Positions 12,664 to 48,782 of a DNA stretch of 59,239 nucleotides are shown here, one piece after another. A program made the position numbers and the translations under genes. Every line of letters starts with the position of its first letter. The first letter of the stretch is position 1. This DNA is from a virus. Taxonomy: Duplodnaviria; Caudoviricetes. A model generated the notes under the pieces. It made no database searches, was not told the origin of the DNA, and worked only from the letters and a program-made list of their open reading frames with translations. Location of the stretch: the IMG/VR virus record IMGVR_UViG_3300030104_003308, positions 1-59,239 of that record; one strand, written 5' to 3'.

Positions 12664-13039
12664 GAATATCAGTGAACCAAATTTTAAACAGACACCAGAA
12701 GACAAAAGGCCAGAGTATGTATTACATGGATTTACACCAAAGCAACACGGAGTTATGCAGATGCTCTGTCGGAGTGCAAGTAATGCAGAAATTGCCAGAC
12801 GTTTTAATATCTCTGAGAACACTGCGAAGATACATGTTCGTACTGTGGCTAAGAGGTTGGGTGTCAATGCAAGGGCAGAAATTGTGTTGAAAGTTTTACC
12901 TGCTTTGAAAGAGATAGACGAGGAAAGCTATCAGCTTCTTACGAAAGGTTTGCCAAGAAATTGGGATGCTAATTGGGGGAACGAAGGGGGTAAAGCATTT
13001 GACCACTTATTAATTAGGGACGACAATGCTAAAACTTAG
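12599..13039 (+). CDS. LuxR/GerE-type helix-turn-helix regulator without receiver or ligand domain
   Basis: FTPKQHGVMQMLCRSASNAEIARRFNISENTAKIHVRTVAKRLGV. Confidence 0.85.
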   Translation: MKQLDRIEWKLDQIIQKLGTLENISEPNFKQTPEDKRPEYVLHGFTPKQHGVMQMLCRSASNAEIARRFNISENTAKIHVRTVAKRLGVNARAEIVLKVLPALKEIDEESYQLLTKGLPRNWDANWGNEGGKAFDHLLIRDDNAKT

Positions 13040-24712: not shown

Positions 24713-25065
24713 GGCGTTTCCTTATTTGCTTTAACTTTTTCAATCGTAGTTCCTAAGATGAACCCACTGATGCAACCAAACTGAGAAAGAATGAAGGTCG
24801 TACTGACAGGTATCAAGTGGTCAAGTCTCGACTCTGGAACAAACTCTGGAAAGATTAGGATGCCGACAACAACAGTTGTGCATATCGTTTGAAACCAGAT
24901 TAAAGCACGGATCATATCTCGTTTGGCATTGTCGTCTTGGATACGTAACCTTTTTTCTTCTCTTGCCAGTTGAGCATCAATCTCTTCATCGGTTAGAATG
25001 TGATCTCCATTAGCATCAGCCTTATGAAAGCGAGAGTTTTTATCTAGCTTCTTTATCACTTCCAT
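24709..25065 (-). CDS. EF-hand-like motif plus two TM helices, lysis cassette
   Basis: DANGDHILTDEE followed by two hydrophobic segments. Confidence 0.6.
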   Translation of the reverse strand: MEVIKKLDKNSRFHKADANGDHILTDEEIDAQLAREEKRLRIQDDNAKRDMIRALIWFQTICTTVVVGILIFPEFVPESRLDHLIPVSTTFILSQFGCISGFILGTTIEKVKANKETP

Positions 25066-28000
25066 TCACCTCCCCAGTTACCCCAACCAGAAGAAGTATT
25101 TGTTTTCTCTCCAGCTAAAGTATCAACGATGCCTTCTCTAGCTCTTCTAATCCCACCGACAACTGGTATCCTAGTCGCTAGTTCTCTGACGGCTGTTCTT
25201 TCTTTCGAGTTACTGTCTGTTGTTCCAAAGATAAAATCTTTAGCTCCACCAGCCACACTCAATCCACCTGTTACAAGACCGACACTTGGACCACCTAACG
25301 TCTGTAAGAACCTTGTCTGTCCATAAGAACCATTGTCTGCCTGTGTGACGGCTGAGTGTAAGATGTCACCGAGCAGACCAACACCACCCATTTGCAACAT
25401 TCCTTCAAGATACCAACCCCAGAAATCAACTTCATTCCCATGAACTTTCTCATCATATCCTAAAGTTTTCATAGCGTTTCTAATTCTAACGGCTGGTGAT
25501 TTCTCGTCTTCACCACCTCTCATTTGAACTACGTCTTTGACGGCTAATGCTCCCATACCAAAAGCTGGACCGAGTGAAGCAAAGTAAAGAAGGGGTTTGA
25601 TGTTGGCTTCGCCTATAGTAGAGAAGTCTCCCTTCAATATTTTATGTAGCTGGGCTTCCCTCATTACATGACCTGCCAGACGTGTCATCATTAGTGGGAA
25701 AGACTTTAACTGGAAAGCCAATGCACCAAGAGGTGTCTGTGCAAACATGGGTGTGTCGTTAGCATTTGGTTGAAAGATACTTTCGTCTGCAAATCTAATG
25801 ATAGCTTTTCTTAAAGCTGGTTCTTTAGGGTTGCCTTGTTTATCTAAACCAATAAGTGACTTATCACTTAAACTAACATTGCTTTTACTTCCACCAGCTA
25901 GATACTCTTCAAGACCAAACTGCTTCATGTATCTATAGGCTATCTTATAATCTCTTGGCTGTTGGCTTGTCGGCTTGCCATGTTGATAAGACTTTAATGC
26001 CTTTCTTTGGTGAGTGATAAATGTCTGGTGTCCTAATGCACCTGCCACCTGCCTGTTCATGTCTGTCCAAGGTGTCAGCATTGTTGCGTTAAAGAAAGCA
26101 TTTGATAGTTTGCTATCTACTGCACCATACATGTTTAACATTCTTTCGTGAGTAATATTCTCCATTGCGATACCAACCTCAGACAAGGCTCTCTTATAAT
26201 CTGGGTCAGTAGCCAGTGCCTTTACGCCTTTAACCCAGTCAGTCATAGAGCCAGACCTTATGATTGGTAAGACGAGGTCACCTAATGATGTCAGCGTAGT
26301 GAAGCCAAGCAGGGTAACATTGTTAAATGTTCTTAAAGCTCTTGAAGTTCTTAAACCTGCCTTACCACCAAAGTCATTGAGGCTATCTTTTCGAGCCACT
26401 CGCATAGAGTTTTCAACAAATCGTGCATCATCATTCTCCATTAAAGTTTTAACACCTTTGAAGTCTTCTAATGCTCCAACGATAGCATCAACTCTTGCCA
26501 AGTAAGTAGGGTCTTTAGCCCCATTAGCACTATTGACTGCAATACTCTCTAGTCTTTCTCTCACGGCTGGTGAGCCATGTGTGTTAGCTATCTCCACAAG
26601 CTCTTCTGCAAATTGAATTGCTTGCTGATCGTTGCCACTGAAAGGCATTAATGTTTCTGATCTAAGAACACCTTCTTGAACACCTTCAGTGGTGACACTT
26701 CTGAAATCTTTCTGGAATATTTTATTAGTAGATAAAAGTTTAGCTATTCCCCTAGCTCCATTCTCAGCAACATAGAGATAGTCGTCTACACCATGAGAAT
26801 TTAATCCAAACTTCTTGGTGTGAAGAGTTCTTCTTGTTGAACCTTCAAAATATTTGACCAACATAAACTCTAAGTCATCTTCAAGAAAATTCTCTAGCTC
26901 ACCCATAGCTCTTGGATATTTCTCAAGCTCTATTATTCTATTGAAGTCTATGCTTTCAGCCTGTGCATTTTTGGTACTACCCCTTACAGGTGACTTAGGA
27001 CTTTCTGGAACTTGAACACCATCTATGTTTTCTCTCGTCAGACTTTGATAAACCTTTTCTGCAAATGCGTCAGCGTCTGCCATTTGATATGTGTTACCTA
27101 AAGCTGTCTGCTCTTGACCATAATAGCTTCTCATACCTGCTAGAAAAGCATCTCTATTCTTTTGTATCTTGTCTCTATTCCATATCTGTGGAATGTAGTC
27201 CTTTCTCCAACCAACAAACATTCCAGCATCTTTCATTCGAGCATGTTCTTTAGCAAACTCATCTTTAATTTTATTAAATGCTGCTCTCTGTTGTGGAGTT
27301 AATGCTTTCTCTTGTCTGCTTCCTACTCCGTGTCTGAGGGCAGACACAATTTTCCTGTACGCTTCGGGTTGTTTTTGACCTACGCCACCAGACGCAGCCC
27401 TTGCCCAAGCCCTGACTTTTCCGTCTGCACCTGGCAAGTCACGCAATACATTGTGGATTGGCATATACTTTGATGCAAAAGTCTGATGCTGGTCTGGGAA
27501 GTGTTGCTTGTACCAGCCACCTAGCCAGTTCATACCCATTCTTTCCATTCTGTCTGACTGACTTCTTAGCCAAGCTATTGGTCCAGCCTTTCTGATAGCC
27601 TGTTCTTGAACAGGCGTAAAATCTCTACTCCTTATGATACTTGATAATGCGTCAACCATTGGAGGGGATACCCCTTCATCTTCAATAGTCTCAAGCATTT
27701 GAATAGTGTTATTGGTATCTAACTTATCAAGATTTCCGTCTGCCATTTCCATAGCAACAGAGCCGTTAAATCCCTGTGGTGTGGTTGAGAAGTCTCTATA
27801 GTATAGACGAGCGTCTTCAGCATCAAAGAACTCAGCATTGACATGCTTGACGCCTTCAGGATTGAAGACCACAAAGGCATCGTATTCAATAAATTCCCCA
27901 CGAACAGCATCTTCAGGAGTAGTGTCTGTCGGTGTCATTCTATTTTGATGAGGGAGTTTCATGCTATCAAAGCCAGCATCTTCAATAGCTTGGTTTAGAA

Positions 28001-31000
28001 TTGCTTGGGCGTTGTCTAACCCTGCTGTACCTATATCAGCATCCATCCCATTTCTTACGTAGCTCATAAGGGTGTCATAAACTTCCTGTCCTCTAAGACC
28101 AGTCTTAGGCCACCATTCTTGGAGCATCTCATCAGCAAATGCTCTGTCACCCCCTTCAAAATTATTTGTGACTGCATAGATTGATCTAAGTATAGATTTG
28201 ATTTGTGGGTCAATTAGCCTGTGAGTTACTCCTTTCCCCATATCAAAAGTATTTAGCATACGAGTGACAAGGGGTAAGACAGTTGGCTCAAAGTTAATTC
28301 CGTTTGCACTAAACTCAGCCGTTACTGCCTCTTCCTTTTCAAGCATTGAAGTCAGCTTGTCTTTTAATTTTGCCTCATGCTCTTGTTTCGTTTTAAGTTC
28401 TCGGTTGAGGTATGAGACACTATCTTCATCAATCTCTCCACCCATAACCTGTTCAAAGTGCATAACCTCATCATTGTGCATTTCAACATCATCTGCTGCT
28501 TCTGAAAGCTGGCGTCTGGTCTGTGCAATTTCTACCCTAAGATCGTGCAAATCTAAGGCTTCATAAACAAGAGCGTCTGTCTTTTCCTCACCAAGTTCTG
28601 GAGATTTATTTCTAATCATTTTTTCAATCGCTTTTGGTGTTGGGCGATTTCCATAAATCATTTCTACAGCACGAGAGTTTGGTGATATGTAAATTCCAGG
28701 TCCAGCAAGACCCCCACCTTGTTCCATCACAACTTGACTATTCTTAAATGCTCCACCATTTGGAGTGGCGTGATAGTAGACAATAGGTGTTCCGTCTTCT
28801 CGTACAGAATATTTACCACCTCCGTTGTATTTAGAGATGGCAGCTTTTTTTGATTGTTTGCTCTGTCTTAGAACATCACCAGCATACGCAGTAACGTATT
28901 CTGGTGAGACAGCAGGTTCTTTTATATTAGTTTTAACAAGTGGAGATTTGCCAGTAGCTTCAAGCATATCCCCATAAATGGTCAGACGTCTGAACTGTTG
29001 CTTGATGTCTTTACGTCCAATCAATCCATTAACCACATACGCTACATATTCGACAACTCTATCGAAAGCTCTCTCGAAAGAATTTTTAAGACGTATGTTA
29101 TCTAGGTTTCCACCAGACATAGCCTTTAATACATCCCCACGCATGGTTCTTTCACCTAGATATTTAGCTAAGTTTTCAGCAAACCATTCCTCGGCAAGCA
29201 AATCTTCTTGCTGTGCTTCTGGGGCATCGTATTTCCCACCATAAGCTTTCTTTACTCTGTCTTTAATTGCATCATCAGACGCTCTATAAAGCTCGATGAC
29301 AGCATCCATCTCTTCTTTTGGAAGCATACCAGCCCTTACGATTGTGTGACCAATCTCGTGGATAGCATCAAAGGGATTACTATTTCCTTTAGTTAAGCCA
29401 ATGGATATTTTTCTAAAATCTTTTCGTAGCTTGTTAAAAGTGCTACCACGAAAATCTACAGATACATTCTTCTGACCAGCAGGGTCTACACCAGCCAGAC
29501 GTGCTATGTCTGATGCGTCCATTACATTCGTTTCACCCATTGTGTTCTCTACATTTTTACCCATAAGGTTCATCATTCTGTAGAGCATTGTTCTTTGAGT
29601 AAACTGTACTTCTGGATCACGATGCGACATGTAAGACAGAATAGTCTTAGCACCGATTGGTGCTGATGGAGGAATACCATCTTCAGTTGCCACACCAATG
29701 CCATGATTGAGTTCTGTTTTAATTCTCTGTCTTAAATATTTAGGTATTGGTTTGTTAGCTGTCTTATATTTGTCAACTAGGCCACGTCTTTGAACTTCCC
29801 ACTCTATTGCAGAGAAGTTATATTCTCTTCCACCATGTTCAAATCTGCCTGTCCTTATTCCATCCCTCCAAAGTTTTAAAATTTCATCTTTGGTCAGAGT
29901 AAAAAGTTTGTGGCTTTCAGCAGACTTTCTTTGTAAGCGAGCAATAGCTTCTTCTGGTGTGGTATTTTTATCAAACCTAATTTTGTTTTCAGTAAGTATT
30001 CTTTTTACATTATTATTAATAGAAGGGAGAATCCCTCCTTGAAGTTTCTCTAATAAATCTAAAGCCTCTTGGGTAACAGGTGTCCTGTCTTTAGCTTGGT
30101 TAATTCTATTCATGTCTTGGGCAGAAGAGATGATAGGCTCTGGTTCTGCTTTTTTCTTCGACATCATCAGCCAAGCAATCTGATCGCCTAATGCTGTATC
30201 TTCTGTCTTCTTAAATAGCTCTAAGAGTTCCTTATAAGACTTATCTCCATAAGAAACTTGGGTGGCTTCAGTGATATAGTCCATTCTCTTGGAAGGATCG
30301 TATGTAGAATTTCTTTTTCTTTGTGGTTTCTTAACAACTTTAAACGCTCTATTCTCAGCGTCTAAATTATCATCTCTCTTTTTATTTAATCTTCTCTTAA
30401 TTGCTGGGTCAGGTTTTGTAACAGTAGTTTCCCCAGTTTTTAGGTTGACTATGGTATCTGGTAATTGCTTGCCCTCAAAATCCATATAGGCTGTATCTGT
30501 GTATTCTTCCATCAAACGCATAAGTTCTGTCACTGTAGTAAAATTTACTTCTTTCTTCAGGTGGGGAACATATACCTTGAAGGCTGTTCCTCCGTAGGGT
30601 CTTGCGTTTGCTCCTCCTTTTAGGTTTACAGAATGTCCATGCTCAAATAGTTCCATTAACAAATTTGCTTTAGCCTCTACTGTCTCAGGGCTTGGCATTG
30701 CATTAAGACCTTCTTGTCTTATCTTAGACGCTTCCGATTCAGGTATTTTTAAATCGTCTGGCAGACCAGCTTCAGACAAAATGTAGTTTATATCTGCTAA
30801 ACGGCCTCGCCCCATCTTTGCTATTTTTCGTAGCCAGCTTAATTCTTTCCTGACGTTTGTAGCTTTACCCCCTACGTCATAGCCTGGAAACGCCTTATAA
30901 AGTACATCACTTCTAAACGCTGTGATAACATTGATAAGTCTTTCTGGGTTTCCATACTCACTTTTGTTTTCTCTAATGGCAGCAGCAATATCATCTTTGT

Positions 31001-34000
31001 ACATTCTTAGTGTACTCTTAAAGCCCCACGCAAGTTTTCCCCCTGGCGTCTGTGGCTTGTCAGATATATTGCCCAGCTTTTTCATCTGTCTGATTTCTTC
31101 AGGAAGTATTTTAGAGAAGAGAGGTTCTAGGTTTGGATTAATCTCTTTTTTGGAAAAGTATCTGTCGATTGAACCTTTCAAGATTTCAGAAACTTTTGCA
31201 CCCATCCTCTTTCCATTAGGAAGAGGCTTTGCAAAGATGCCAGCAGTTCTATTATCCATAATCCAACTAGTGAACTGATCTCCAAAGACTTGACGAGGAA
31301 GAATACTGCCTTCCCCTCCATACTCTTCACTCAGCTTCTTCCCTCTTTTTTGTCCAGCCCCACGTTTTTGGCTAATGTCTTGAATAATACTGTTCCAGAA
31401 AACCATTCTATCTTCTGGCGTTAAGATGTTGTCATAAGCCCATTGAGATATGGCATGAAAGAAATCCCTGTCTGGCTTTGCACCTGAAGTCGCCAGAATT
31501 TTTCCCTTGTCGTAAGACCAAGAAGCTCCATCTTTTGCAGTAGTGCTTTCAGTACGGAAAATATTAGGTGCTTTATTAGGATCACCCCCCATATAAGAAA
31601 GTGTATTCTTAACAGCCACCACGAGATCGGGGTCTGTGCCAGACATAATTTGATTGATGCGATTAGTGGCTTCAGCCCTTTCAGCACTGCTCCTAACAAT
31701 ACCACCAGGCATTTTATCTCGCTGGATGGAATAAAGCTGTTCAAGATCGTTTATTAAAATGGCGTATTCTGTTTCTGTCTGTGCCAGAGAGAAGCCTTTA
31801 TTTTCTATAGTATCTATTCTCGCTTGGACATCTGCCAGTGTAGAATTTTCATTCATACCACCACGCTTAAAAGCCAATGCTTGTTGAGGATTGAGTTCGC
31901 CTGATGTGACAGGAGATTCAGCTAGGTTCTCAACAGGGGTAGCCATTCCATTTCCTGTTTCATCACCAACAAAACGTAAGACGCCTTTTCCGTCTGTTGC
32001 ATCGTGGGGAGGGGTTGATTTTTCCCATAACTCAGGAAGGACACTTTGCTTTCTGCTGGTAACTAACTCTTCATCAATGTATCTGACTTCCCAATCTTCT
32101 GGTTTTTGATTGCCCAACATTTCCTTCAAGCCTTCGCCATTAGCTTCTTGCTTGGAGTTCATAATTCTTATAGGGCGAGCTCCAGTTCCATCCTTTCTTT
32201 TTATTATAAGTATTCTGTTACCTTTTCGGAGGGGCTGATCTTCAAGGACTTTAGATTTACCAGTTCTTCTTATGTCTTTCTGGTAGTAAAGAAGATCGGC
32301 AGTATATTCGCTGTCAAATATTTTTCCGTTTCTTCCATCAACATATAAGACTGTACCCTTTTCAAATATGGTACTGTCATTAATTCGCCCTTCTGGGGAA
32401 ACAGAATAAACTTTGTATTCTTTCTGTTCAGTGACATAAGGAACAACAACGCTTTCACGCTCTATTGCTTCTATTTCAGCTTCGACTGCTTTGATCTTAT
32501 CTGGACTTCTAAGTCTATCTATTCTTTTTCTAAGTTTTTCTACATTCTCTCCCTTTCTAAGCAATCTCCTCTTAGCTTCAGCGAGGGCAGAGCCGTAATC
32601 CATCATACGATTGTCTACAAAAGTTTGCTCAGATTTATCTAAACCAACCCTATTAGACTGCCACTTTAGGAATGACTGTATTCTTCCGTTTTCTGTTCTG
32701 CCAGCTTGTTTAAGAATAGATGCACGATCAATCGCTGCCTGTGCATTTCTCATGTGAGTTTTAATTCCTCGGCCTCTTCTTTTTTCTAAGACCATCTTCT
32801 TGGCATTTAAAGCTATCTCTTCTGGGTCTGGATCAACATAATCTGCAAGCTCGTCCTTAGATAGGTTGGCTTTGTATTTTTTTTCGTTTCTTATTAGATC
32901 ATTAATAAGGTCTTGCATCTCAGACTGTTCTTCGGGCTTCAGCTTTAGCTTTCTAATAAGATCATTGTCTGCTATCATCTGAGCTTCTCCACCAGAGATC
33001 ATCTCATCGTAGGCTTTCTCTATGTCTGCTGGATTTTTAGATGGCTGTTTTCTTTTCATCTGGTCGATAACAACCTTACGCATCTCATCAGGGTCAGTTA
33101 TCATTTTGTTGGCAGACGCTAGGTTGCCAGCTACTTTTCCAAATGGCATATCTGGTTCGGGTGTTTTGCCAGTACCAGTTTCCTCAAGAATACTCTTAAC
33201 TGTATTAGGAGCACCTCGCATAATGACGCCAGCAGAGTTTGTTGGGATTTTGCCAGAAGCAATGTTTTCTTTAAGAAAAGTATTGGCTTCTTCTGGAGTA
33301 AGACCAGCTTCTGCAAGTACTCTATCAACCCCTTTTTTTCCACCACCACCTGCTTTCTTCCCCCAATTCGGTTCTGGAAGTTCTGATAGTTCTTGCTCTG
33401 GAGCTTTTGTTTCTACTTCTGGTGCTGGTGCGTCTGTATCTACTGTGGCAGCAGAAGGTTCAGCCACTTGGGAGGATTCATCGGCTTGGCCTTCTGCCAC
33501 CTGTCCAGCCTCTCTGGGTGGAGGAGAAGCTGTACCTTTTTCTGTTGTTGTCTTAGTTTTTACTTCTTCAGCTTTTAATTCTTTAGCTCTCGTTTCTATT
33601 TCTTTTGCTCGTGCTTCAGCATTGGCTATAATGCTACGGACAGTAACTGTATCGCCTCTCTTTAGTGCAGCCCTTGCTTTTGCAACGTCTGCGTCCAGAG
33701 CTTCTTGCATTTTTTTAGCAGTGGTTCTGTCTGAAACTTTGTTTGATGCCTGAAGTATTGTGATCTGGTCTTGTTCATTACTAAGACGATTAATAATCCT
33801 TGCATTGATTTGTGCTTGAGCAAGCTCTGCTTCCACATCTGATCTCGCTGCACCTGAAACTCCTTGCTCTTCCATTTCAAGGAGAGCGTCTTCGTGTTCT
33901 TTAATCTGTCTTTGAAAGGTTGCTTCCTGACCTTTTAATTCTTCAATTATTTCCTCAGTTGCTGTCTTTGGGGCAGGTGCTACTTCACCTTCTGCTAATT

Positions 34001-34874
34001 CGTCTGCCTGTTTTTCAGGAGGTACAAAACCTGGGGGGACAGTTGGTCCAGTTATTTGTGCGTCTTTGACAGCTTCGGTTGCTTGTTTGTTTGTAAGTAA
34101 GGCAATGTCTTCTGGAGTATTATTGAGTCTAGGGTTTAAAAGCTCTTCAGCTTGTCTTTGTCCTTGTCTTGTTCCAGCTATTGAAGCAGGGATACCGATA
34201 GTACCACCAACAGCACCACCTAAAACAGTTCCAAAGGCAGTTGCTTTTGTGAATTGACCCCAGTCAAACTCTTCTTGAAGACCTATGTCCTGTCTGTAAG
34301 ACTGTTCGGATACGTTGATTAATGCTTCCTGTCCACCTGAGATTACACCTTCTGTACCAGCAGCAGCACCCATACCTTTGAGAGTGGACTTAATAGGTGT
34401 TCCTTTACCTAATGCAGTCGCTGTTCTCATAGAGGCTTGGGCTACAGATTTACCTGCAACACCACCAAGTATGTTGATTGGATCAAGCAATACAGACGTT
34501 GCTATGTCTGGAACAGCACCCCAACCACGACCACCTTCTTGATAGAAATTTGGAAGATTATCCCAAACAGTAGAAAGTCTTGCGTTTCTTAACTTCTCTT
34601 CGTCTGTGTCTCCACCACCTTGCGACAACCTTCCTACAGCACCAATAGTATTTAACTGAGCCCAGTTTTCGTCTGAGTAAAATTTGTTGATAAGGTCTTC
34701 ATCAGTATAAATTCCATCAGGATCATATCTGTCTTGAAGGTCTTTTAAAAACTGAGGGTTTCTAAGAATAGTTCTTCTATCTACTTGCGAAGCATATCCG
34801 AGGTCGATGTTTGAAGATGAGGTTTGATCTATGGGATCAGTTATATCCCATGTCGTATCTTTAAATGATGACAT
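25056..34874 (-). CDS. Giant internal virion/ejection polyvalent protein, 3272 aa
   Basis: DPIN..GG and Gly/Ala-rich N-terminus; HEIGH zincin motif; ART-like YHAT...GPGIYISP...VVFNPEGVK; last gene of the ejection block. Confidence 0.8.
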   Translation of the reverse strand: MSSFKDTTWDITDPIDQTSSSNIDLGYASQVDRRTILRNPQFLKDLQDRYDPDGIYTDEDLINKFYSDENWAQLNTIGAVGRLSQGGGDTDEEKLRNARLSTVWDNLPNFYQEGGRGWGAVPDIATSVLLDPINILGGVAGKSVAQASMRTATALGKGTPIKSTLKGMGAAAGTEGVISGGQEALINVSEQSYRQDIGLQEEFDWGQFTKATAFGTVLGGAVGGTIGIPASIAGTRQGQRQAEELLNPRLNNTPEDIALLTNKQATEAVKDAQITGPTVPPGFVPPEKQADELAEGEVAPAPKTATEEIIEELKGQEATFQRQIKEHEDALLEMEEQGVSGAARSDVEAELAQAQINARIINRLSNEQDQITILQASNKVSDRTTAKKMQEALDADVAKARAALKRGDTVTVRSIIANAEARAKEIETRAKELKAEEVKTKTTTEKGTASPPPREAGQVAEGQADESSQVAEPSAATVDTDAPAPEVETKAPEQELSELPEPNWGKKAGGGGKKGVDRVLAEAGLTPEEANTFLKENIASGKIPTNSAGVIMRGAPNTVKSILEETGTGKTPEPDMPFGKVAGNLASANKMITDPDEMRKVVIDQMKRKQPSKNPADIEKAYDEMISGGEAQMIADNDLIRKLKLKPEEQSEMQDLINDLIRNEKKYKANLSKDELADYVDPDPEEIALNAKKMVLEKRRGRGIKTHMRNAQAAIDRASILKQAGRTENGRIQSFLKWQSNRVGLDKSEQTFVDNRMMDYGSALAEAKRRLLRKGENVEKLRKRIDRLRSPDKIKAVEAEIEAIERESVVVPYVTEQKEYKVYSVSPEGRINDSTIFEKGTVLYVDGRNGKIFDSEYTADLLYYQKDIRRTGKSKVLEDQPLRKGNRILIIKRKDGTGARPIRIMNSKQEANGEGLKEMLGNQKPEDWEVRYIDEELVTSRKQSVLPELWEKSTPPHDATDGKGVLRFVGDETGNGMATPVENLAESPVTSGELNPQQALAFKRGGMNENSTLADVQARIDTIENKGFSLAQTETEYAILINDLEQLYSIQRDKMPGGIVRSSAERAEATNRINQIMSGTDPDLVVAVKNTLSYMGGDPNKAPNIFRTESTTAKDGASWSYDKGKILATSGAKPDRDFFHAISQWAYDNILTPEDRMVFWNSIIQDISQKRGAGQKRGKKLSEEYGGEGSILPRQVFGDQFTSWIMDNRTAGIFAKPLPNGKRMGAKVSEILKGSIDRYFSKKEINPNLEPLFSKILPEEIRQMKKLGNISDKPQTPGGKLAWGFKSTLRMYKDDIAAAIRENKSEYGNPERLINVITAFRSDVLYKAFPGYDVGGKATNVRKELSWLRKIAKMGRGRLADINYILSEAGLPDDLKIPESEASKIRQEGLNAMPSPETVEAKANLLMELFEHGHSVNLKGGANARPYGGTAFKVYVPHLKKEVNFTTVTELMRLMEEYTDTAYMDFEGKQLPDTIVNLKTGETTVTKPDPAIKRRLNKKRDDNLDAENRAFKVVKKPQRKRNSTYDPSKRMDYITEATQVSYGDKSYKELLELFKKTEDTALGDQIAWLMMSKKKAEPEPIISSAQDMNRINQAKDRTPVTQEALDLLEKLQGGILPSINNNVKRILTENKIRFDKNTTPEEAIARLQRKSAESHKLFTLTKDEILKLWRDGIRTGRFEHGGREYNFSAIEWEVQRRGLVDKYKTANKPIPKYLRQRIKTELNHGIGVATEDGIPPSAPIGAKTILSYMSHRDPEVQFTQRTMLYRMMNLMGKNVENTMGETNVMDASDIARLAGVDPAGQKNVSVDFRGSTFNKLRKDFRKISIGLTKGNSNPFDAIHEIGHTIVRAGMLPKEEMDAVIELYRASDDAIKDRVKKAYGGKYDAPEAQQEDLLAEEWFAENLAKYLGERTMRGDVLKAMSGGNLDNIRLKNSFERAFDRVVEYVAYVVNGLIGRKDIKQQFRRLTIYGDMLEATGKSPLVKTNIKEPAVSPEYVTAYAGDVLRQSKQSKKAAISKYNGGGKYSVREDGTPIVYYHATPNGGAFKNSQVVMEQGGGLAGPGIYISPNSRAVEMIYGNRPTPKAIEKMIRNKSPELGEEKTDALVYEALDLHDLRVEIAQTRRQLSEAADDVEMHNDEVMHFEQVMGGEIDEDSVSYLNRELKTKQEHEAKLKDKLTSMLEKEEAVTAEFSANGINFEPTVLPLVTRMLNTFDMGKGVTHRLIDPQIKSILRSIYAVTNNFEGGDRAFADEMLQEWWPKTGLRGQEVYDTLMSYVRNGMDADIGTAGLDNAQAILNQAIEDAGFDSMKLPHQNRMTPTDTTPEDAVRGEFIEYDAFVVFNPEGVKHVNAEFFDAEDARLYYRDFSTTPQGFNGSVAMEMADGNLDKLDTNNTIQMLETIEDEGVSPPMVDALSSIIRSRDFTPVQEQAIRKAGPIAWLRSQSDRMERMGMNWLGGWYKQHFPDQHQTFASKYMPIHNVLRDLPGADGKVRAWARAASGGVGQKQPEAYRKIVSALRHGVGSRQEKALTPQQRAAFNKIKDEFAKEHARMKDAGMFVGWRKDYIPQIWNRDKIQKNRDAFLAGMRSYYGQEQTALGNTYQMADADAFAEKVYQSLTRENIDGVQVPESPKSPVRGSTKNAQAESIDFNRIIELEKYPRAMGELENFLEDDLEFMLVKYFEGSTRRTLHTKKFGLNSHGVDDYLYVAENGARGIAKLLSTNKIFQKDFRSVTTEGVQEGVLRSETLMPFSGNDQQAIQFAEELVEIANTHGSPAVRERLESIAVNSANGAKDPTYLARVDAIVGALEDFKGVKTLMENDDARFVENSMRVARKDSLNDFGGKAGLRTSRALRTFNNVTLLGFTTLTSLGDLVLPIIRSGSMTDWVKGVKALATDPDYKRALSEVGIAMENITHERMLNMYGAVDSKLSNAFFNATMLTPWTDMNRQVAGALGHQTFITHQRKALKSYQHGKPTSQQPRDYKIAYRYMKQFGLEEYLAGGSKSNVSLSDKSLIGLDKQGNPKEPALRKAIIRFADESIFQPNANDTPMFAQTPLGALAFQLKSFPLMMTRLAGHVMREAQLHKILKGDFSTIGEANIKPLLYFASLGPAFGMGALAVKDVVQMRGGEDEKSPAVRIRNAMKTLGYDEKVHGNEVDFWGWYLEGMLQMGGVGLLGDILHSAVTQADNGSYGQTRFLQTLGGPSVGLVTGGLSVAGGAKDFIFGTTDSNSKERTAVRELATRIPVVGGIRRAREGIVDTLAGEKTNTSSGWGNWGGEWK

Positions 34875-44535: not shown

Positions 44536-44843
44536 TAGGTAGCTTTCCTAACTATTCTTCCATTCATAAAAAAATGATGCTTCTCAAATCTTTCGGTATC
44601 GTCTGCCTGAACTTCGTATTCAAGGCGTCCATTCGTAAAGTTTCTGATAGGGTTAATATCTGCACAAGGAAACATACTAGGTTCTTTTTCCCTACTCTCG
44701 TACCATACTGTCTGAGGTTTAATAGGTTTAACAGGTTTCACAACCTCCTCTTGAACGTATGCTTCATTAATGTCTGGGGTAGATGGGTCATCCTTTTTAT
44801 AATGACCTTTTTCAGTTCTTGCTCTTTTTCTTTTCAAAACCAT
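44535..44843 (-). CDS. Small phage protein with RAR..KG....DDPSTPD.NEAY motif
   Basis: AGGAGG SD; motif typical of marine phage structural regions. Confidence 0.7.
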   Translation of the reverse strand: MVLKRKRARTEKGHYKKDDPSTPDINEAYVQEEVVKPVKPIKPQTVWYESREKEPSMFPCADINPIRNFTNGRLEYEVQADDTERFEKHHFFMNGRIVRKAT

Positions 44844-44861
44844 TTAGTCCTCCTAATGTAA

Positions 44862-44888
44862 TAAAGGGGAGCATAAAGCTCCCCTTTA
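44862..44888 (-). terminator. Terminator after the major capsid gene
   Basis: TAAAGGGGAGC-ATAAA-GCTCCCCTTTA inverted repeat. Confidence 0.75.
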
Positions 44889-44918
44889 ATATGTAGCATT
44901 TTGAAGAGTTGGTCGTCC
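44888..44918 (-). promoter_or_regulatory. Late promoter motif GGACGAC-N18-CATATT
   Basis: Intergenic, directly after the capsid stop. Confidence 0.6.
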
Positions 44919-46112
44919 CTATGATCTAGAGTCCCAACCTTTGATGTAAGCATGAACTTTGTCTTGCAAGAGTTCCAAACCACATTCGGTTAGGTACTCG
45001 TGCTTGACGCTGTCTGCGTCTGGTGCTTGTCTATTTTCCAATAGCTGAGTATCTCTACCTTCGAGGTAGCGATAAGATAGATATGGGAAGTCGATTATCA
45101 CCATAGCATTTTTCATGTGATCCAACTGACGGAACTGTGGGTGTAAGTGAACCATCAAGTCACCTGCAAATGTTGTGTATCTTATAAGATTAACCCCATA
45201 AGAACCCTCAACAACTGTAGGCTTCCATCTGTCTTTACCCATTTGCTGTAGCTGGTTAGCTACTGTTTCACCTACGAAAGCGATCTTTTGATTGCTTCCA
45301 TACTTGAACACAGTTGACATAAGTAGGCTGTCAAATCCTTCTTCTGACATCTTACCAGCACTTGCTCCACCATAGCTGGCAAAGGAAGTGGCGATATCGA
45401 CAACATTTGTTAAGGAGTTAATCAGACCACCAGTGTAACGTGTTGGTGATGCAGTTGAGCCATTGGCTTCATGCTTGTTTCCAAAGAACATAGCTCTTTC
45501 GATGTCAGACATGTGTAGTTTAAGAGCCTTCGTCATGCTCTCATCCATCTTATCCCCAGTTCTTAGATAAGTTGAGCTCAAAGTATTTGATACTTGGAAC
45601 GCAGTTCTAAAAATTTGGGTGTAGTTGGAGACTACAGATGCGTCAAAAGAAATAGCAGTTGGAGATGTCCCACCTTCAGTCGCTGCATAGCCACTTATAA
45701 ATAGCTTGTCATTGTCTGTAATTGAGTGTGACGTTCCTCCAATGTTTCTGGAGACTGTTAGAGTTGTGCCTGTTGTATCAGCAGAAGCTTGCATAACTTC
45801 TCCAGTTGCTTGGGAAATTATAATAGCACCACTAATGGCGAACTTATTATCGTCTGCTGCATCAATCGTAATGGCAGTTGCTGAGTCATTATAACCAGCA
45901 CCATTATCAACTGTTACAACTCGGTCTGGGAGTTCATCTCTAAAATTTTTGTACTCTGGATCGTCTGTACTCTCAGACGAACCCATAGATAACAACGCAT
46001 TTAGAGGTGCGTTCCCATTAGGTTCAAGAAGCGTAAAAAGCTCCCTATAGTTTTTTGGACGGAAGTCTGTGCCGAACTCGCCAGTACCTCTCATCCCTTG
46101 AATTGCTGCCAT
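44919..46112 (-). CDS. Major capsid protein (DUF5309/SU10-like)
   Basis: NYTQIFRTAFQVS, DIERAMFFG, TGGLI, YLTECGLE; AAGGAG SD. Confidence 0.85.
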   Translation of the reverse strand: MAAIQGMRGTGEFGTDFRPKNYRELFTLLEPNGNAPLNALLSMGSSESTDDPEYKNFRDELPDRVVTVDNGAGYNDSATAITIDAADDNKFAISGAIIISQATGEVMQASADTTGTTLTVSRNIGGTSHSITDNDKLFISGYAATEGGTSPTAISFDASVVSNYTQIFRTAFQVSNTLSSTYLRTGDKMDESMTKALKLHMSDIERAMFFGNKHEANGSTASPTRYTGGLINSLTNVVDIATSFASYGGASAGKMSEEGFDSLLMSTVFKYGSNQKIAFVGETVANQLQQMGKDRWKPTVVEGSYGVNLIRYTTFAGDLMVHLHPQFRQLDHMKNAMVIIDFPYLSYRYLEGRDTQLLENRQAPDADSVKHEYLTECGLELLQDKVHAYIKGWDSRS

Positions 46113-46186
46113 AGATAAATCTCCTTTGGCTTAAGGTTAAGGTTTAATATGTGACGAGTATTGTGGAATTACCTTCACTAACTCAT

Positions 46187-46217
46187 AAGTCTGTAGGCCG
46201 TAGCGTACTTGTGACTT
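46187..46217 (-). promoter_or_regulatory. Leader hairpin with cUACGg loop (capsid)
   Basis: AAGUC-ACAA-GUA-C-GC-UACG-GC-C-UAC-A-GACUU. Confidence 0.6.
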
Positions 46218-46223
46218 AATTGC

Positions 46224-46254
46224 AACGTACACTAATTTTTACATTAGTTCGTCC
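46224..46254 (-). promoter_or_regulatory. Late promoter variant GGACGAA-N18-TACGTT for capsid
   Basis: Predicted start coincides with the 5' end of the leader hairpin. Confidence 0.55.
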
Positions 46255-46675
46255 CTATTAAAGATTTTGTCCAACTTTCTTTTTCACAGTCCTCAGAAAA
46301 CTTACTAGGATGTATCCTTTTAGTCAGACCTTTCCCAAAAAAACCTACATTAAAAAATAGAACTTTCTCTATATCTATGGCAACCAGTGCAACAATGTCA
46401 CAGTCTTTTTTTGTTAAGGGGATTTTTGGCAGACGCCCAGAGCATACAGAAAAGTGATACGTCCAGTATCCTCTGCTTTTTCTTTCATAAGCTCTTCTGT
46501 ACCGACTAGACTTTACTTGCACTCTTACAGGTTTGTTGTTGTTTAATGCCAGTATGTCTGTCTTTTGCAGATACACAAAATTACAGGGGACACCCATCTT
46601 CAATAGCTTTGTCAAGCATATTGCTTCTCCAAGAAGACCCATGTTTAAATGGGCGTATCTATCCTTTTCTTCCAT
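46244..46675 (-). CDS. PD-(D/E)XK endonuclease
   Basis: GLLGE, TDIL, RVQVKS, CDIVALV. Confidence 0.75.
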   Translation of the reverse strand: MEEKDRYAHLNMGLLGEAICLTKLLKMGVPCNFVYLQKTDILALNNNKPVRVQVKSSRYRRAYERKSRGYWTYHFSVCSGRLPKIPLTKKDCDIVALVAIDIEKVLFFNVGFFGKGLTKRIHPSKFSEDCEKESWTKSLIGTN

Positions 46676-47063
46676 AGAATATATGTCTGCCGATCTTTTT
46701 GATTTTCGATACGTCTGAGAGCCAGTAAGGTTTTACATAGGAAGCGTGGTAGAATAGGGCTTGATCTCCAACAACTGTTACTCTTGCGTCTTCCATGTAC
46801 GCATCAAACATTGTTTCTGCTATTCTAACAGACTTTCTCCACGCTTCTTTCTCATAGGGCTTGTCTGACTTCCCATCACAAGTCCAGCTAAATGCACAAG
46901 ATTTCTTACCAGACTGGAGAACAACCTTCTTTACAGTATCAGGATAATAGGGGCTATCAACTCTATTAAGAGTAACTTCAGCCACTGCAATCTGACCAGA
47001 GATAGGCTCATTCCTTGCTTCGTGGTAAATATTAAGTGCTAAATATAATACAGCTTCTAACAT
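46659..47063 (-). CDS. SleB-like cell wall hydrolase (Hydrolase_2)
   Basis: LALNIYHEARNE..GQIAVA.VTLNRV, FSW, FYHA.YV.P.W, IGRHIFY. Confidence 0.9.
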   Translation of the reverse strand: MLEAVLYLALNIYHEARNEPISGQIAVAEVTLNRVDSPYYPDTVKKVVLQSGKKSCAFSWTCDGKSDKPYEKEAWRKSVRIAETMFDAYMEDARVTVVGDQALFYHASYVKPYWLSDVSKIKKIGRHIFYGRKG

Positions 47064-47076
47064 AATAATCCCCCAT

Positions 47077-47103
47077 AAAAAAACGCCCTCCTTTTGGGAG
47101 GGC
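47077..47103 (-). terminator. Terminator after the scaffold gene
   Basis: GCCCTCC-CAAAA-GGAGGGC-G-T7 on the - strand. Confidence 0.8.
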
Positions 47104-47132
47104 AGTTTGGTGAGGCAACATGAAACTCGTTA

Positions 47133-48143
47133 CTAAGCTATGCCCTTTTGAGCCATTTTTGATGCAGCGAACTTATCAAATCGGCTTTCTGTAGGGGCTG
47201 TTTCATTTGATCCACTAGCTGGTGTATTACCTAGAGAGCCAGTAAATGCTGATCTTTTCTTAGCAATCTCAACTAGTCTTTCCATTTCTGGAGAGTTGAG
47301 GTTATTTTTGTAGTCTTGCATTAACTTGATAGTAAGACCTGGGTCGATAAGGTCTTCCATTGTGTATCCTCTCTCTGCCATGAAGACAGGAAAGTTTTGA
47401 GCAGCTTCGTCTGGAAGACCAAGTTGTTGCTGAACTCTATCAATGTTATTTGCAATAGTCTTTTGCATAGCTTGAATTTGCATATTGTTCGCACTGTCCA
47501 TTGTGCTTTTAGCTGCATCAACATTACCTTGCGATCTTGCTAAGACCTGACTAAGCATCTGCTCCAATTTAGCCATTCTACCATTCATGGTGCTCATGCC
47601 AGTTTGATTGCCTGTCATCATTGCTTCGTATCCAGGTGGTAAGCTGATAGCATTTTCTTCAGCCCATTTAGTCATTTGGTCTTGCATAGAAGACTCACCA
47701 GCTTTTGCAGGGGTGTTGCCCTCTGTATTGCCCATAGAAGGGTTTTTCTTGCTTGCCTTTAAAATATTCTCAAGAGTACCTGCAACGTCTTTCGGTTGCA
47801 TATTTGGATTGGCTCTAAGTATTTTAGCCACTAAGTCGTTGACTGGTTTGAGGTTTGCGTTTTGGTAGTTTAAAGCTGCATATCTCTGCATGGTCGAAGA
47901 GATTTGCTTTGGGGTCATGTTTCTCGTCTTGCCATCACCCATGTCTATTTCATAAACAACAGCTTCAGCGTTCATCTTGTCGTTTTCAGTCGTTGGACTG
48001 GCTTTACTAGATGCCTTGTCTTCGTTGCTGTCTTTAGCTTTTGCCTCTTTTGGTGGGACTGGTTCTTCAACAGGTTTATTGTTGGGCGTACCGAGCTTTG
48101 CCTGTGAAATTGAGTCTATTATTTCTTTATCGTTTATAGCCAT
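47133..48143 (-). CDS. Putative scaffolding protein
   Basis: Charged disordered N-terminus, helical, upstream of capsid, AAGGAG SD. Confidence 0.65.
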   Translation of the reverse strand: MAINDKEIIDSISQAKLGTPNNKPVEEPVPPKEAKAKDSNEDKASSKASPTTENDKMNAEAVVYEIDMGDGKTRNMTPKQISSTMQRYAALNYQNANLKPVNDLVAKILRANPNMQPKDVAGTLENILKASKKNPSMGNTEGNTPAKAGESSMQDQMTKWAEENAISLPPGYEAMMTGNQTGMSTMNGRMAKLEQMLSQVLARSQGNVDAAKSTMDSANNMQIQAMQKTIANNIDRVQQQLGLPDEAAQNFPVFMAERGYTMEDLIDPGLTIKLMQDYKNNLNSPEMERLVEIAKKRSAFTGSLGNTPASGSNETAPTESRFDKFAASKMAQKGIA

Positions 48144-48154
48144 TATATCTCCTT

Positions 48155-48172
48155 GGGAGGCCGTAGCGTCCC
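48155..48172 (-). promoter_or_regulatory. Leader hairpin with cUACGg loop abutting the scaffold SD
   Basis: GGGA-C-GC-UACG-GC-C-UCCC then AAGGAG. Confidence 0.6.
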
Positions 48173-48192
48173 CTTAAATTGAAAGTAATGGC

Positions 48193-48224
48193 ATTATGTA
48201 CTCTAGGGATTGCTTTTGTCGTCC
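48193..48224 (-). promoter_or_regulatory. Late promoter motif GGACGAC-N19-CATAAT
   Basis: Upstream of the scaffold gene. Confidence 0.65.
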
Positions 48225-48466
48225 TTCTCTCCTAACGCAATTTCAGCACTAAATTTCGATGTAAGTTTAGAGGGTAGGTCTAGCAATGCTTTTGCAGCAA
48301 AGATTGATCCTCTTCTAAAGTTAATCTCATCCAAAGTCATTTGTGAATTTTCTGCGATTGCCATAGCAGAAGAAACGATTTCCTCCTCCATTACCTGACG
48401 CATGACTGTCCACCCTTTACTTTTTACAAGGGCATCTATCGCATTAAGCGATGCCTTTGGATTCAT
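48203..48466 (-). CDS. Small head-module protein
   Basis: SKGW...FRRG motif, upstream of scaffold. Confidence 0.6.
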   Translation of the reverse strand: MNPKASLNAIDALVKSKGWTVMRQVMEEEIVSSAMAIAENSQMTLDEINFRRGSIFAAKALLDLPSKLTSKFSAEIALGEKDDKSNP

Positions 48467-48593
48467 TTTTTCTTAGAAGGTTTCTTTTTATTAATTGGCT
48501 TACCAGCCATCACAGCACCATGCCCCTTTTTCCCAGACGAGGTTTTGTGAGGTATTGACCCCATATAGGGTTTTAAGTTGGGTTGTTTTCCCA

Positions 48594-48782
48594 TCACATA
48601 CTCCATAAAATTGTTGCAAGTAAAATAATTATAGCAGACGCTGCTCCTATAAGTAGTCCCTCTATCCGTTTAAGACGGATAAAAAGTTCTTTGAATTGAA
48701 TAGATGTCTCGTGTTCTAAGACGAGGACACGCTTTTCAATTTCGTCTATTTTTTCGATTGCAGTTGTAAGGTCGTGGATCAT
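48594..48782 (-). CDS. Small coiled-coil protein with C-terminal TM helix
   Basis: RLKRIEGLLIGAASAIIILL. Confidence 0.65.
   Translation of the reverse strand: MIHDLTTAIEKIDEIEKRVLVLEHETSIQFKELFIRLKRIEGLLIGAASAIIILLATILWSM

Follow-up and report, generated by a model that had tools for sequence, protein, structure and literature searches.

Why does the same short hairpin stand in the leaders of two phage genes, that of the major capsid protein and that of a scaffold-like protein encoded upstream of it? The whole stretch of DNA analysed here (the window, 59,239 nucleotides) is a complete temperate marine phage of the CRP-810 type, in which an integrase is present and the capsid protein shares 82% identity with the protein annotated as major capsid protein in Roseobacter phage CRP-810. 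Phages of this type are reported (PMC11288001) to be distributed worldwide and to infect or lysogenize bacteria that abound in the sea, Roseobacter CHUG and SAR11 among them. Judged from sequence comparison, the hairpin (hairpin 1) is a real, conserved and covarying cis-acting RNA common to exactly these two leaders, and it is probably a site of joint control over production of the phage head.

Two copies of hairpin 1 in the window

An earlier, sequence-only reading of this DNA had noticed that ACGCTACGGCCT recurs in both - strand leaders and folds as a GC-UACG-GC tetraloop hairpin over a C-C mismatch, on lower stems that differ. Both observations hold. The element occurs exactly twice in the 59-kb window, at 46195-46206 and 48158-48169, each time on the - strand; no variant with one mismatch is found elsewhere in the window, and two matches were reached in 0 of 100 shuffles. 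RNAfold returns the same folds, namely GGGA/C/GC-UACG-GC/C/UCCC for the scaffold copy (48155-48172, - strand) and GUA/C/GC-UACG-GC/C/UAC for the core (46208-46193) of the capsid copy, which in its extended form spans 46186-46218 (- strand). Both copies contain the strict core described below and are matched by our covariance model R1, with 27.3 bits (E 4e-05) for the scaffold copy and 23.0 bits (E 0.00065) for the capsid copy. The fold energies, -9.8 kcal/mol for the scaffold copy (24-mer) and -4.4 kcal/mol for the capsid core, are ordinary when compared with shuffles (z of -1.9 and -1.3, respectively; overall span -0.3 to -1.9), so the case for hairpin 1 stands on its conservation and not on its stability.

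Searches with Rfam 15 gave no match over either hairpin in 45800-48500 at E values up to 10, and one tRNA only in the whole window at the gathering threshold. No T-run follows either hairpin and the terminator scan lists neither, which argues against intrinsic terminators. The loop falls within the extra-stable C(UNCG)G/YNMG tetraloop class. Pairing of the loop with a downstream CGUA was considered and dropped, since changes in the loop are not followed there; for the loops CUCG and UUCG the complement is absent downstream in the leader alignment. An N4-like phage with hairpin promoters, first suspected from a 3272-aa ORF, was also dropped, because this ORF has no PHROG match, the phage is of the CRP-810 type and the hairpins lie downstream of sigma-70-like boxes. 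A term search of the text of PMC11288001 did not return 'RNA polymerase'.

Conservation and covariation in relatives

From the alignments of relatives, the common module consists of a variable stem, a C.C or C.U mismatch, a G-C and a C-G pair, and a YNMG tetraloop. The strict core of this module, CGCYNNGGCY, was recognized in 73 of 81 capsid leaders and, among scaffold leaders, in 69 of 72; it persists while the capsid protein falls to 66% identity and the scaffold-like protein to about 35%. These two rates and the any-letter mismatch scan given below are the unbiased ones; the cores of alignment A1 were picked by a regular expression, so the core columns are invariant by construction in the 78-sequence covariation set. 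Besides the two window copies, alignments A1 and A3 contain 48 hairpins from capsid leaders and 35 from scaffold leaders, all distinct, after regular-expression failures (8 of 81 capsid leaders and 3 of 72 scaffold leaders) and duplicates had been removed. One lineage, made up of L014 and L025, is without the canonical hairpin 1; in L014, where both leaders can be seen, it is absent from both.

Among the 78 distinct sequences, every one of the three pairs beneath the mismatch occurs in all four Watson-Crick types, with only 2, 0 and 13 unpaired cells of 78, respectively. The covariation score of this lower stem is 0.56, which 0 of 500 shuffles reach, versus 0.16 in shuffles and 0.20 at most when the partners are slid against each other. 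Lack of conservation in relatives had been named in the sequence-only reading as grounds for giving up the idea of an operator; the hairpin is instead both conserved and covarying.

The mismatch itself is also kept. When any letter was allowed at its two positions, 71 distinct hairpins were recovered, with CC in 40, CU in 28, and UC, CA and GG in one each, and a Watson-Crick pair in 0 of the 71. An exception is the Poseidonocella prophage L086, whose scaffold copy has C-G in place of the mismatch. On these counts the pyrimidine-pyrimidine mismatch is under selection. Above it, a YNMG loop, with the closing C-G demanded by the selection expression, was found in 75 of the 78 distinct sequences, the others being TATG (2) and TGTG (1). 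The loops can differ between the two copies of one genome, as in L008 (UACG/UUCG) and L010 (UACG/CGAG), which means that the loop is conserved as a fold class. Conservation of this kind is also expected from selection for pure stability.

That the element acts as RNA of the sense strand is indicated by the YNMG loops, by its position downstream of -10-like boxes and by an excess of G.U over A.C (7 versus 1) in the two innermost lower pairs.

A covariance-model scan of related phages, as proposed in the sequence-only reading, places the matches at the two leaders. In the 59-kb window, R1 finds only the two copies, the next best hit being at 10.3 bits (E 2.1). The 81 loci yield 150 matches, every one of them on the sense strand; save for a few adjacent tandem copies (lineages L063, L069, L074, L076 and L077) and one stray (E 0.78), they lie at the two leaders. 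In all five complete relatives searched, which were chosen by length, every match falls inside the scaffold-capsid interval, and both copies are present in 4 of 4 bacterial or MAG loci that had not been used for building R1, an independent test. Other late genes with the same promoter box lack hairpin 1. In four distant isolates with 27-32% capsid identity (Vibrio VS-ABTNL-3, Caulobacter Kuura, Microcystis Mel-JY34 and Pseudomonas PaP2) R1 finds nothing above 9.5 bits, and the gaps before their capsid genes are only 6-50 nt. As far as these genomes go, the motif is therefore specific to the CRP-810-type family.

The leaders of the scaffold-like and capsid genes

The scaffold-like gene (336 aa, 47133-48143, - strand) is preceded by a promoter-like pair at 48193-48222 (- strand; 9 of 12 matches in the promoter scan), made of ACGACA (48222-48217), an 18-nt spacer and CATAAT (48198-48193), from which the transcript would start near 48186. 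A GGACGA box upstream of the gene is kept in relatives, and the promoter geometry, searched as a regular expression, recurs upstream of the scaffold gene in 18 of 35 distinct regions. The hairpin begins about 13 nt from this predicted start and so would occupy roughly nucleotides 13-30 of the transcript, a position that does not suit a 5′-terminal protector. Its end at 48155 directly adjoins the Shine-Dalgarno sequence AAGGAG (48154-48149), followed by the ATG at 48143-48141 (together 48141-48154, - strand), and the gap between hairpin and Shine-Dalgarno is 0-4 nt in nearly all relatives. After the gene comes an intrinsic-terminator-like hairpin with a T-run (47075-47104, - strand, from the terminator scan), whose stem of 8 pairs (47104-47084) is followed by TTTTTTTATG.

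The gene is called scaffold-like since no family or fold match was found for its product. The protein has no Pfam and no PHROG match; a profile of 31 sequences (alignment A5, 31 of 60 scaffold-like proteins, with L001 left out) gave nothing significant among PDB sequences, the best hit being a designed helical protein at E 0.0087; and its AlphaFold model, mostly helical with a mean pLDDT of 64, gave nothing in Foldseek with an E value of 0.001 or better. Among named atlas clusters the closest is PF09306 (Phage-scaffold) at 0.88, which is below the reliable range and serves as a lead only. The putative scaffold assignment thus comes from position, size, predicted helicity and this weak lead. 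In most relatives the gene lies directly upstream of the capsid gene; in the window and its nearest clade two genes lie between them.

The major capsid gene (397 aa, 44919-46112, - strand) is identified by Pfam SU10_MCP (E 1.6e-40) in addition to its identity with CRP-810. Its promoter-like pair at 46224-46255 (- strand), read from the letters and from relatives, has a GGGACGAAC box with ACGAAC at 46252-46247, a 17-nt spacer and TACGTT at 46229-46224. An exact copy of the TAGGGACGA box is found at this site, and 42 of the 46 distinct regions upstream of capsid genes have the box together with a 17-18 nt spacer and (T/C)AnnnT. Transcription would then start near 46217, at about the first base of an outer helix, P1a, in which 46218-46213 pair with 46191-46186. 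Above P1a follow an internal loop (ACAA/A), P1b (GUA/UAC), the C.C mismatch, GC/GC and the UACG loop. P1a of at least 4 bp can form in 39 of 49 capsid leaders, compared with 0.405 of shuffled flanks; alignment A2 covers 42 of these 49 distinct leaders, the near-duplicates L011, L026, L038, L044, L051, L053 and L080 being omitted.

Behind the capsid copy lies a second hairpin, element 2 (46156-46184, - strand), which reads GAGU / UA / GUG / bulge AA / GG / UAAU / UC / CAC / AAU / ACUC. Of 56 distinct capsid leaders, 43 show this architecture, as opposed to 1 of 56 reverse complements, 7 of 280 coding windows and 24 of 1120 shuffles, and its inner stem is recovered by RNAalifold (alignment A4 covers 18 of 31 distinct copies). 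The sequence-only reading had one hairpin touching the scaffold Shine-Dalgarno and the other beginning at the predicted capsid transcript start with a second imperfect hairpin after it. The first and last of these points are borne out, and the promoter geometry agrees with the predicted start. The Shine-Dalgarno AAAGGAG (46127-46121) and the ATG (46112-46110) of the capsid gene, together 46110-46127 on the - strand, are about 70 nt downstream of the capsid copy. Thus a structured site abuts the ribosome-binding site in the scaffold leader but not in the capsid leader, and simple occlusion cannot act in the latter.

Possible function of hairpin 1

The reading that fits best is that a protein bound to hairpin 1 would balance scaffold and capsid synthesis. 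From the fixed pyrimidine-pyrimidine mismatch and the restriction to two leaders, we infer that specific recognition is favoured. It is quite possible, with a likelihood just short of even, that the hairpin is a cis-acting module in both 5′ UTRs, read by a common factor that couples the two genes post-transcriptionally. The fixed top of hairpin 1 would be read by one trans-acting factor, most plausibly a phage protein. On the scaffold mRNA, translation would be repressed through competition between the bound factor and the 30S subunit, because the hairpin ends directly at the Shine-Dalgarno. On the capsid mRNA, where the module tops an extended stem at the predicted 5′ end and element 2 comes after it, binding would more likely act on mRNA stability or leader folding. 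Sharing one factor, the two separately transcribed genes would be coupled after transcription. A more specific version, which we regard as decidedly unlikely as it stands, has one head protein (free scaffold-like or unassembled capsid protein) reading both mRNAs, repressing scaffold translation at the Shine-Dalgarno and stabilizing or remodelling the capsid leader, so that the scaffold:capsid ratio tracks assembly.

Candidates for the binder were sought among neighbouring small ORFs in 62 loci, and this co-occurrence screen linked none to hairpin 1. A basic 47-aa ORF upstream of the scaffold gene (48463-48606) was detected in 35 of 62 loci with tblastn and in 27 with a motif search. Its occurrence does not match that of the hairpin: it is present in L056, which has no scaffold hairpin, and undetected in many hairpin-bearing lineages. 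An 87-aa ORF was found in 62 of 62 loci and is therefore uninformative on binding. Three marine metatranscriptome runs contained 5-11% of the sampled words; over 44800-48300 they gave nine contig pieces of 35-316 nt inside the capsid and scaffold-like coding regions, with the leaders uncovered and the ends unreadable.

Hairpin 1 could instead be a constitutive structural element that has no dedicated regulator and only the ribosome or the decay machinery as partner; we consider this somewhat unlikely, yet a passive stabilizer or translation element is a serious rival. In the capsid leader a 5′-terminal stem-loop would guard against 5′-end-dependent decay, much as ompA-type 5′-terminal stem-loops stabilize their mRNAs, and the promoter geometry sets the capsid start at the first base of the outer helix, so the copy lies at about the predicted +1. 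In the scaffold leader, the cap beside the Shine-Dalgarno would keep the ribosome-binding site unpaired or stack on the SD/anti-SD helix; this copy, unlike ompA-type stabilizers, is not 5′-terminal by its predicted start. The C(UNCG)G-type cap is also shared with the cUUCGg hairpins of T4 intercistronic regions, cUNCGg caps being generic extra-stable nucleators, and a loop that varies inside the YNMG class, even in one genome, fits such a role. However, ompA-type stabilizers need neither a fixed sequence nor a mismatch, and stability does not explain why all 71 distinct hairpins retain a destabilizing mismatch (69 pyrimidine-pyrimidine, one CA and one GG), nor why the two G-C pairs keep a fixed orientation over a free lower stem; the capsid core of the window is also weak for a stabilizer (-4.4 kcal/mol). 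The promoter-like and terminator-like sites that flank both genes fit highly expressed single-gene units, but other late genes with the same promoter box do without the hairpin. Relatives occur in genomes of Alpha-, Beta- and Gammaproteobacteria, so that a universal host partner would suffice, and the small-ORF screen found no phage binder.

We give little credence to an RNA processing or RNA polymerase-modifying signal, that is, an endoribonuclease site or a nut/put-like site for terminator read-through. Two identical hairpins that each follow a promoter, with terminator-like hairpins downstream, resemble the paired nut sites of lambdoid phages, and a temperate phage with an integrase and two successive hairpins in its capsid leader would suit this view. 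The lambdoid nut site, however, has a boxB hairpin with a GNRA-like pentaloop and boxA ahead of it, as against the four-base YNMG loop here; a hairpin lying against the Shine-Dalgarno, as in the scaffold leader, is typical of translational and not of transcriptional signals; with a promoter-like site to itself, each gene can be expressed in the absence of processing or read-through; and RNase III substrates have a helix far longer than that of hairpin 1. Action at the DNA level, as a cruciform or a double-stranded protein-binding site of late promoters, is very improbable. Stem covariation alone cannot separate an RNA from a DNA hairpin, and the capsid copy is within about 20 nt of the -10-like box; yet both hairpins are downstream of these boxes, with the scaffold copy some 13-30 nt into the transcript and abutting the Shine-Dalgarno, the hairpin is missing at other sites that have the same promoter box, all 150 R1 matches are oriented alike with respect to their gene, and both the 7 to 1 preference for G.U and the loops, which fit an RNA tetraloop class, speak for RNA.

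A protein-read operator has well-known counterparts. Translational operators with protein binders include the MS2/R17 coat-protein, T4 gene 43, T4 gene 32 and E. coli thrS operators, and the scaffold copy is like them in being a short hairpin whose top is fixed and whose lower stem is free, at or just 5′ of the ribosome-binding site. In contrast to these, hairpin 1 is a putative operator common to two genes, its capsid copy lies about 70 nt from the Shine-Dalgarno at the predicted 5′ end, and its signature is a pyrimidine-pyrimidine mismatch with a cYNMGg cap instead of a bulged A or an anticodon-like loop. Closest in subject is the autoregulation of the phage P22 scaffolding protein gene, reportedly described by Wyckoff and Casjens in 1985 and by Casjens and Adams in 1985; this post-transcriptional control of a scaffolding gene tied to head assembly had prompted the idea in the sequence-only reading. 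P22 is unrelated to the CRP-810-type family, and we know of no RNA operator defined for it.

To our knowledge, very little is known about post-transcriptional control of procapsid assembly in tailed phages, and such coordination is suggested by a family-wide module that is confined to the leaders of the scaffold-like and capsid genes. Hairpin 1 is apparently an undescribed cis-acting RNA: no description of the motif was found in the literature searched, with the proviso that a bulk catalogue of thousands of covarying motifs predicted from IMG/VR upstream of phage genes, including some capsid genes, could contain it (PMC10690425). The main text of that catalogue names no CRP-810-type or shared scaffold/capsid motif; its supplementary motif tables may list one. 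If the head-protein version were true, no earlier RNA operator pair would have been defined for head-assembly stoichiometry in a tailed phage; this one, kept throughout an abundant marine family, would also give the scaffold autoregulation of P22 a concrete model. With a short, sharply defined motif and a cultured member in CRP-810, the proposal is directly testable. Should a binder exist, the 18-nt hairpin could also be used as a compact RNA tag/protein pair.

Two copies of one hairpin in the scaffold and capsid leaders

The 12-mer ACGCTACGGCCT, which the sequence-only reading had placed in the minus-strand leaders of both the scaffold-like and the major capsid genes, is indeed present there in exactly two copies (46195-46206 and 48158-48169, both on the minus strand). 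No one-mismatch variant of it occurs elsewhere in the window, and two matches were found in 0 of 100 dinucleotide-preserving shuffles. RNAfold reproduced the folds claimed for both copies of this shared hairpin (hairpin 1), as well as that of the second hairpin at 46184-46156. The scaffold copy (GGGA/C/GC-UACG-GC/C/UCCC; 48172-48155, minus strand) folds at -9.8 kcal/mol, and the SD sequence AAGGAG begins right at its end, while the capsid copy (GUA/C/GC-UACG-GC/C/UAC; 46208-46193, minus strand) folds at -4.4 kcal/mol. Since the fold energies of the window hairpins are ordinary when compared with shuffles (z -0.3 to -1.9), the window sequence by itself would not make the case for the hairpin.

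The window comprises the entire virus record of 59,239 bases, and among isolates only Roseobacter phage CRP-810 is close to it, the two capsid genes being 72% identical in nucleotides and 82% in protein. The CRP-810 family is presented, in the available part of its description (PMC11288001), as new, temperate phages of 52-68 kb associated with Roseobacter, SAR11 and Sphingomonadaceae. A tyrosine integrase gene is present (13026-14300, plus strand; Pfam Phage_integrase, E 6.7e-23), and its open frame spans a tRNA-Thr(GGT) gene that lies on the other strand (14122-14196, minus), an arrangement typical of an attachment site within a tRNA-like sequence. On the minus strand, the gene order runs from an 87-aa ORF (48203-48466) through the 336-aa scaffold-like gene (47133-48143), which has no family match, a Hydrolase_2 cell-wall hydrolase gene (46659-47063) and a 143-aa ORF of unknown function (46244-46675; phrog_5018) to the major capsid gene (44919-46112; Pfam SU10_MCP, E 1.6e-40). 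The 336-aa gene is called 'scaffold-like' only on account of where it lies, its length, its predicted helicity and a weak atlas lead. Searching IMG/VR with the capsid protein gave 80 loci (66-92% identity), which together with the CRP-810 locus make 81. In most of the 80, the scaffold-like gene lies directly 5' of the capsid gene, and about 1 kb separates the two genes in the window and only its nearest clade (L002-L005, L007). The two inserted genes of the window (46244-47063, minus) are flanked by the scaffold terminator on one side and the capsid promoter box on the other, and both leaders are intact.

Conservation, pairing and specificity

Conservation in relatives, the lack of which the sequence-only reading had named as part of a refutation, is extensive: the strict core CGCYNNGGCY is found 50-150 nt 5' of the capsid ATG in 73/81 leaders, and at most 45 nt from the scaffold ATG in 69/72. 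Variant capsid copies carry a UCGC loop in L056 and L058 (folded) and in L057 (by sequence, unfolded), or a U.C mismatch in L069-L071. In the L014/L025 lineage hairpin 1 is absent before both capsid genes, and two tandem copies of the second hairpin (element 2) stand in its place; the scaffold leader of L014 bears just a small hairpin of another kind, against the SD, and that of L025 is off the contig. In four isolates whose capsid proteins are just 27-32% identical, the capsid leader is almost absent and R1, our covariance model of hairpin 1, has no match.

A gap-free alignment that holds 78 distinct sequences among 85 hairpins (the two window copies plus 48 distinct capsid and 35 distinct scaffold copies), showed all four Watson-Crick types and wobble at each of the three lower-stem pairs, which were unpaired in 2/78 (columns 12-23), 0/78 (columns 11-24) and 13/78 (columns 10-25) sequences. 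The covariation score was 0.56 versus a shuffle mean of 0.16, with the observed value reached in 0/500, and it fell to 0.20 or less when the 3' partners were slid by 1-3 columns. Because the core columns of this alignment are invariant by selection, the mismatch was measured in a separate scan of both leader regions that left the letters of the 1x1 position free and asked for at least two pairs beneath it. A Watson-Crick pair occupied this position in 0/71 distinct hairpins of the two leader regions; capsid copies had CC 28, CU 12, UC 1, CA 1 and GG 1, and scaffold copies CU 16 and CC 12. The loop is YNMG in 75/78 distinct hairpins (UACG 39, UUCG 11, CAAG 8, CACG 5, CGAG 5, UAAG 4, CUCG 3; exceptions UAUG twice and UGUG once), and within a genome the two copies often have different loop letters, so that the fold class is kept and not the loop sequence. 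Together with this loop class, the excess of G.U (7 times) over A.C (once) at the two innermost lower pairs points to sense-strand RNA. Most scaffold copies have CCC/GGG as their lower stem (GGGA/UCCC in the clade of the window), and that of capsid copies is made of mixed pairs. Since the C-rich arm of the scaffold copy is anti-SD-like, an alternative pairing with the adjoining SD is conceivable.

The covariance model scan of related phages that had been proposed as a check recovered hairpin 1 at the two leaders, on the sense strand. With filters off, the 24-position R1 scored the two window copies at 27.3 and 23.0 bits, and the third-best match at 10.3 bits (E 2.1). Across the 81 loci (676 kb, both strands) it gave 150 matches at E <=1, all on the gene-sense strand and confined to the two leaders bar three kinds of exception, namely adjacent tandem copies (L063, L069/L071, L074, L076, L077-L079), a weak match in the L035 capsid upstream region (E 0.74) and a stray one at L038:7671 (E 0.78). 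In 5/5 complete relatives (57-60 kb), every match at E <=1 fell within the scaffold-capsid interval. To test the model independently, bacterial and MAG genomes were scanned and four loci obtained (Poseidonocella, an Aquaspirillum-labelled MAG, Kistimonas and a Flavobacteriales-labelled MAG contig), and all four had one R1 match about 100 nt 5' of the capsid gene and another 1.1-2.1 kb upstream of that one, the distance being 1.1-1.2 kb in three of them and about 2.0 kb in L089, which has the extra genes of the window clade. The scaffold copy of the Poseidonocella prophage (L086:1893-1916) has C-G in place of the mismatch, giving a perfect 9-bp stem with a UGCG loop, the sole such exception found.

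Transcription context and further structure of the capsid leader

Upstream of the capsid hairpin, 42/46 distinct relatives have a conserved box, (G)GGACGA(A/C)A, with (T/C)AnnnT at a distance of 17-18 nt downstream; this -10-like box ends 10-23 nt ahead of the mismatch C, a spacing that would place the capsid transcript start at about the first base of P1a, the outer helix around the capsid copy. The promoter-like pair of the window capsid gene was read from the sequence as ACGAAC (46252-46247) and TACGTT (46229-46224), both minus; a motif scan found that of the scaffold-like gene (ACGACA, 18-nt spacer, CATAAT; 48222-48193, minus), from which a start would fall about 13 nt 5' of the scaffold hairpin. 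A scan also found a terminator after the scaffold-like gene (47104-47084 plus T-run, minus), and a terminator-like hairpin was seen by eye after the capsid gene (about 44884-44866, minus). With a promoter-like pair and a terminator or terminator-like site at each, the two genes look like separate, strongly expressed units.

In the window the box starts at 48224, 46254, 44918, 34936 and 58444 (minus) and 13015 (plus), with a -10-like hexamer 17-20 nt on, and TAGGGACGA is exact at 46249-46257, 44913-44921 and 13015-13023. The box recurs ahead of several late genes, namely the scaffold-like gene, the capsid gene, the gene after capsid and a 3272-aa ORF of the virion module (25056-34874, minus; no PHROG match), and looks like a family-specific late promoter element. 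Hairpin 1 is absent at other minus-strand sites with the same box, such as 44918 and 34936. In distant relatives, the terminator preceding the capsid promoter has its 5' arm and loop made up of the same letters as the box. The available part of PMC11288001 lists an 'internal virion protein D' among the structural genes.

P1a pairs 46218-46213 with 46191-46186 (minus) and encloses an internal loop whose 5' side is rich in A and C (ACAA in the window) and lies opposite 0-1 nt on the 3' side. At least 4 bp of it form in 39/49 capsid copies versus 0.405 of shuffled flanks, with no enrichment in scaffold copies (11/36 versus 0.289). The second imperfect hairpin, element 2 (46184-46156, minus), proved to have a conserved architecture, in which an outer stem of 4 bp leads through an internal loop to a 3-bp stem, and a two-base bulge A-(U/A/C) separates this from a 2-bp stem capped by a loop of 3-9 nt; it was found in 43/56 distinct leaders, versus 1/56 reverse complements, 7/280 windows inside capsid genes and 24/1120 shuffles. 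Its stems vary in a compensatory manner (GUG/CAC, GCG/CGC, ACG/CGU, GAG/CUC; GAGU/ACUC, GGGC/GCUC, GAAU/AUUC), these pairs coming from a pairing search, so that the controls weigh more than pair counts. RNAalifold, run on an alignment made with MAFFT, independently found the inner stem of element 2 as well as hairpin 1. In most relatives a short conserved Y-U/G-A-A-C box lies about 20 nt 5' of the capsid SD (columns 115-125 of the capsid-leader alignment; CUUAACC in the window, within 46128-46150, minus), reminiscent of translational enhancer boxes.

Candidate roles of the hairpin

Among the candidate roles, the best reading, which we put forward tentatively, is that hairpin 1 may be a shared, protein-bound element of post-transcriptional control, because several of its features suit recognition by a common partner and are not easily put down to stability alone. 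These are the fixed top with a selected Y.Y mismatch, the free lower stem, the strict confinement to two leaders across whole genomes, the occasional tandem copies and the scaffold copy pressed on the SD. Its main rival, a constitutive stabiliser or translation element with the ribosome or decay machinery as sole partner, is a serious one that appears somewhat less likely to us: cUNCGg caps are generic, the loop varies within a genome and the hosts cover three classes of Proteobacteria, all in its favour, but stability alone hardly accounts for the selected mismatch, the free stem or the two-leader restriction. A processing or antitermination signal, or an element acting at the DNA level, is less likely still.

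Under shared control, the scaffold copy has the placement of a classical translational operator, unlike the capsid copy, which sits at the inferred 5' end, far from the SD, and would for this reason have to act differently, via mRNA stability or leader folding. We would class hairpin 1 with the cis-regulatory leader hairpins, as a module of unusual signature that two genes share. It has no Rfam family and is not mentioned in the available part of the family's description paper (PMC11288001), in whose text, as available, the terms 'promoter', 'hairpin', 'scaffold' and 'RNA polymerase' occur zero times; literature searches found no description of it, and a bulk IMG/VR structured-RNA catalogue, available in part (PMC10690425), might list it.

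No binder of hairpin 1 was identified, and the distribution of a very lysine-rich 47-aa ORF (48463-48606, minus) across 62 relatives does not track the hairpin. This ORF, which has a conserved KKGHG(A/S)VMAGK motif and no family match, is detectable in 27-35/62 relatives and corresponds to gp48 in CRP-810.
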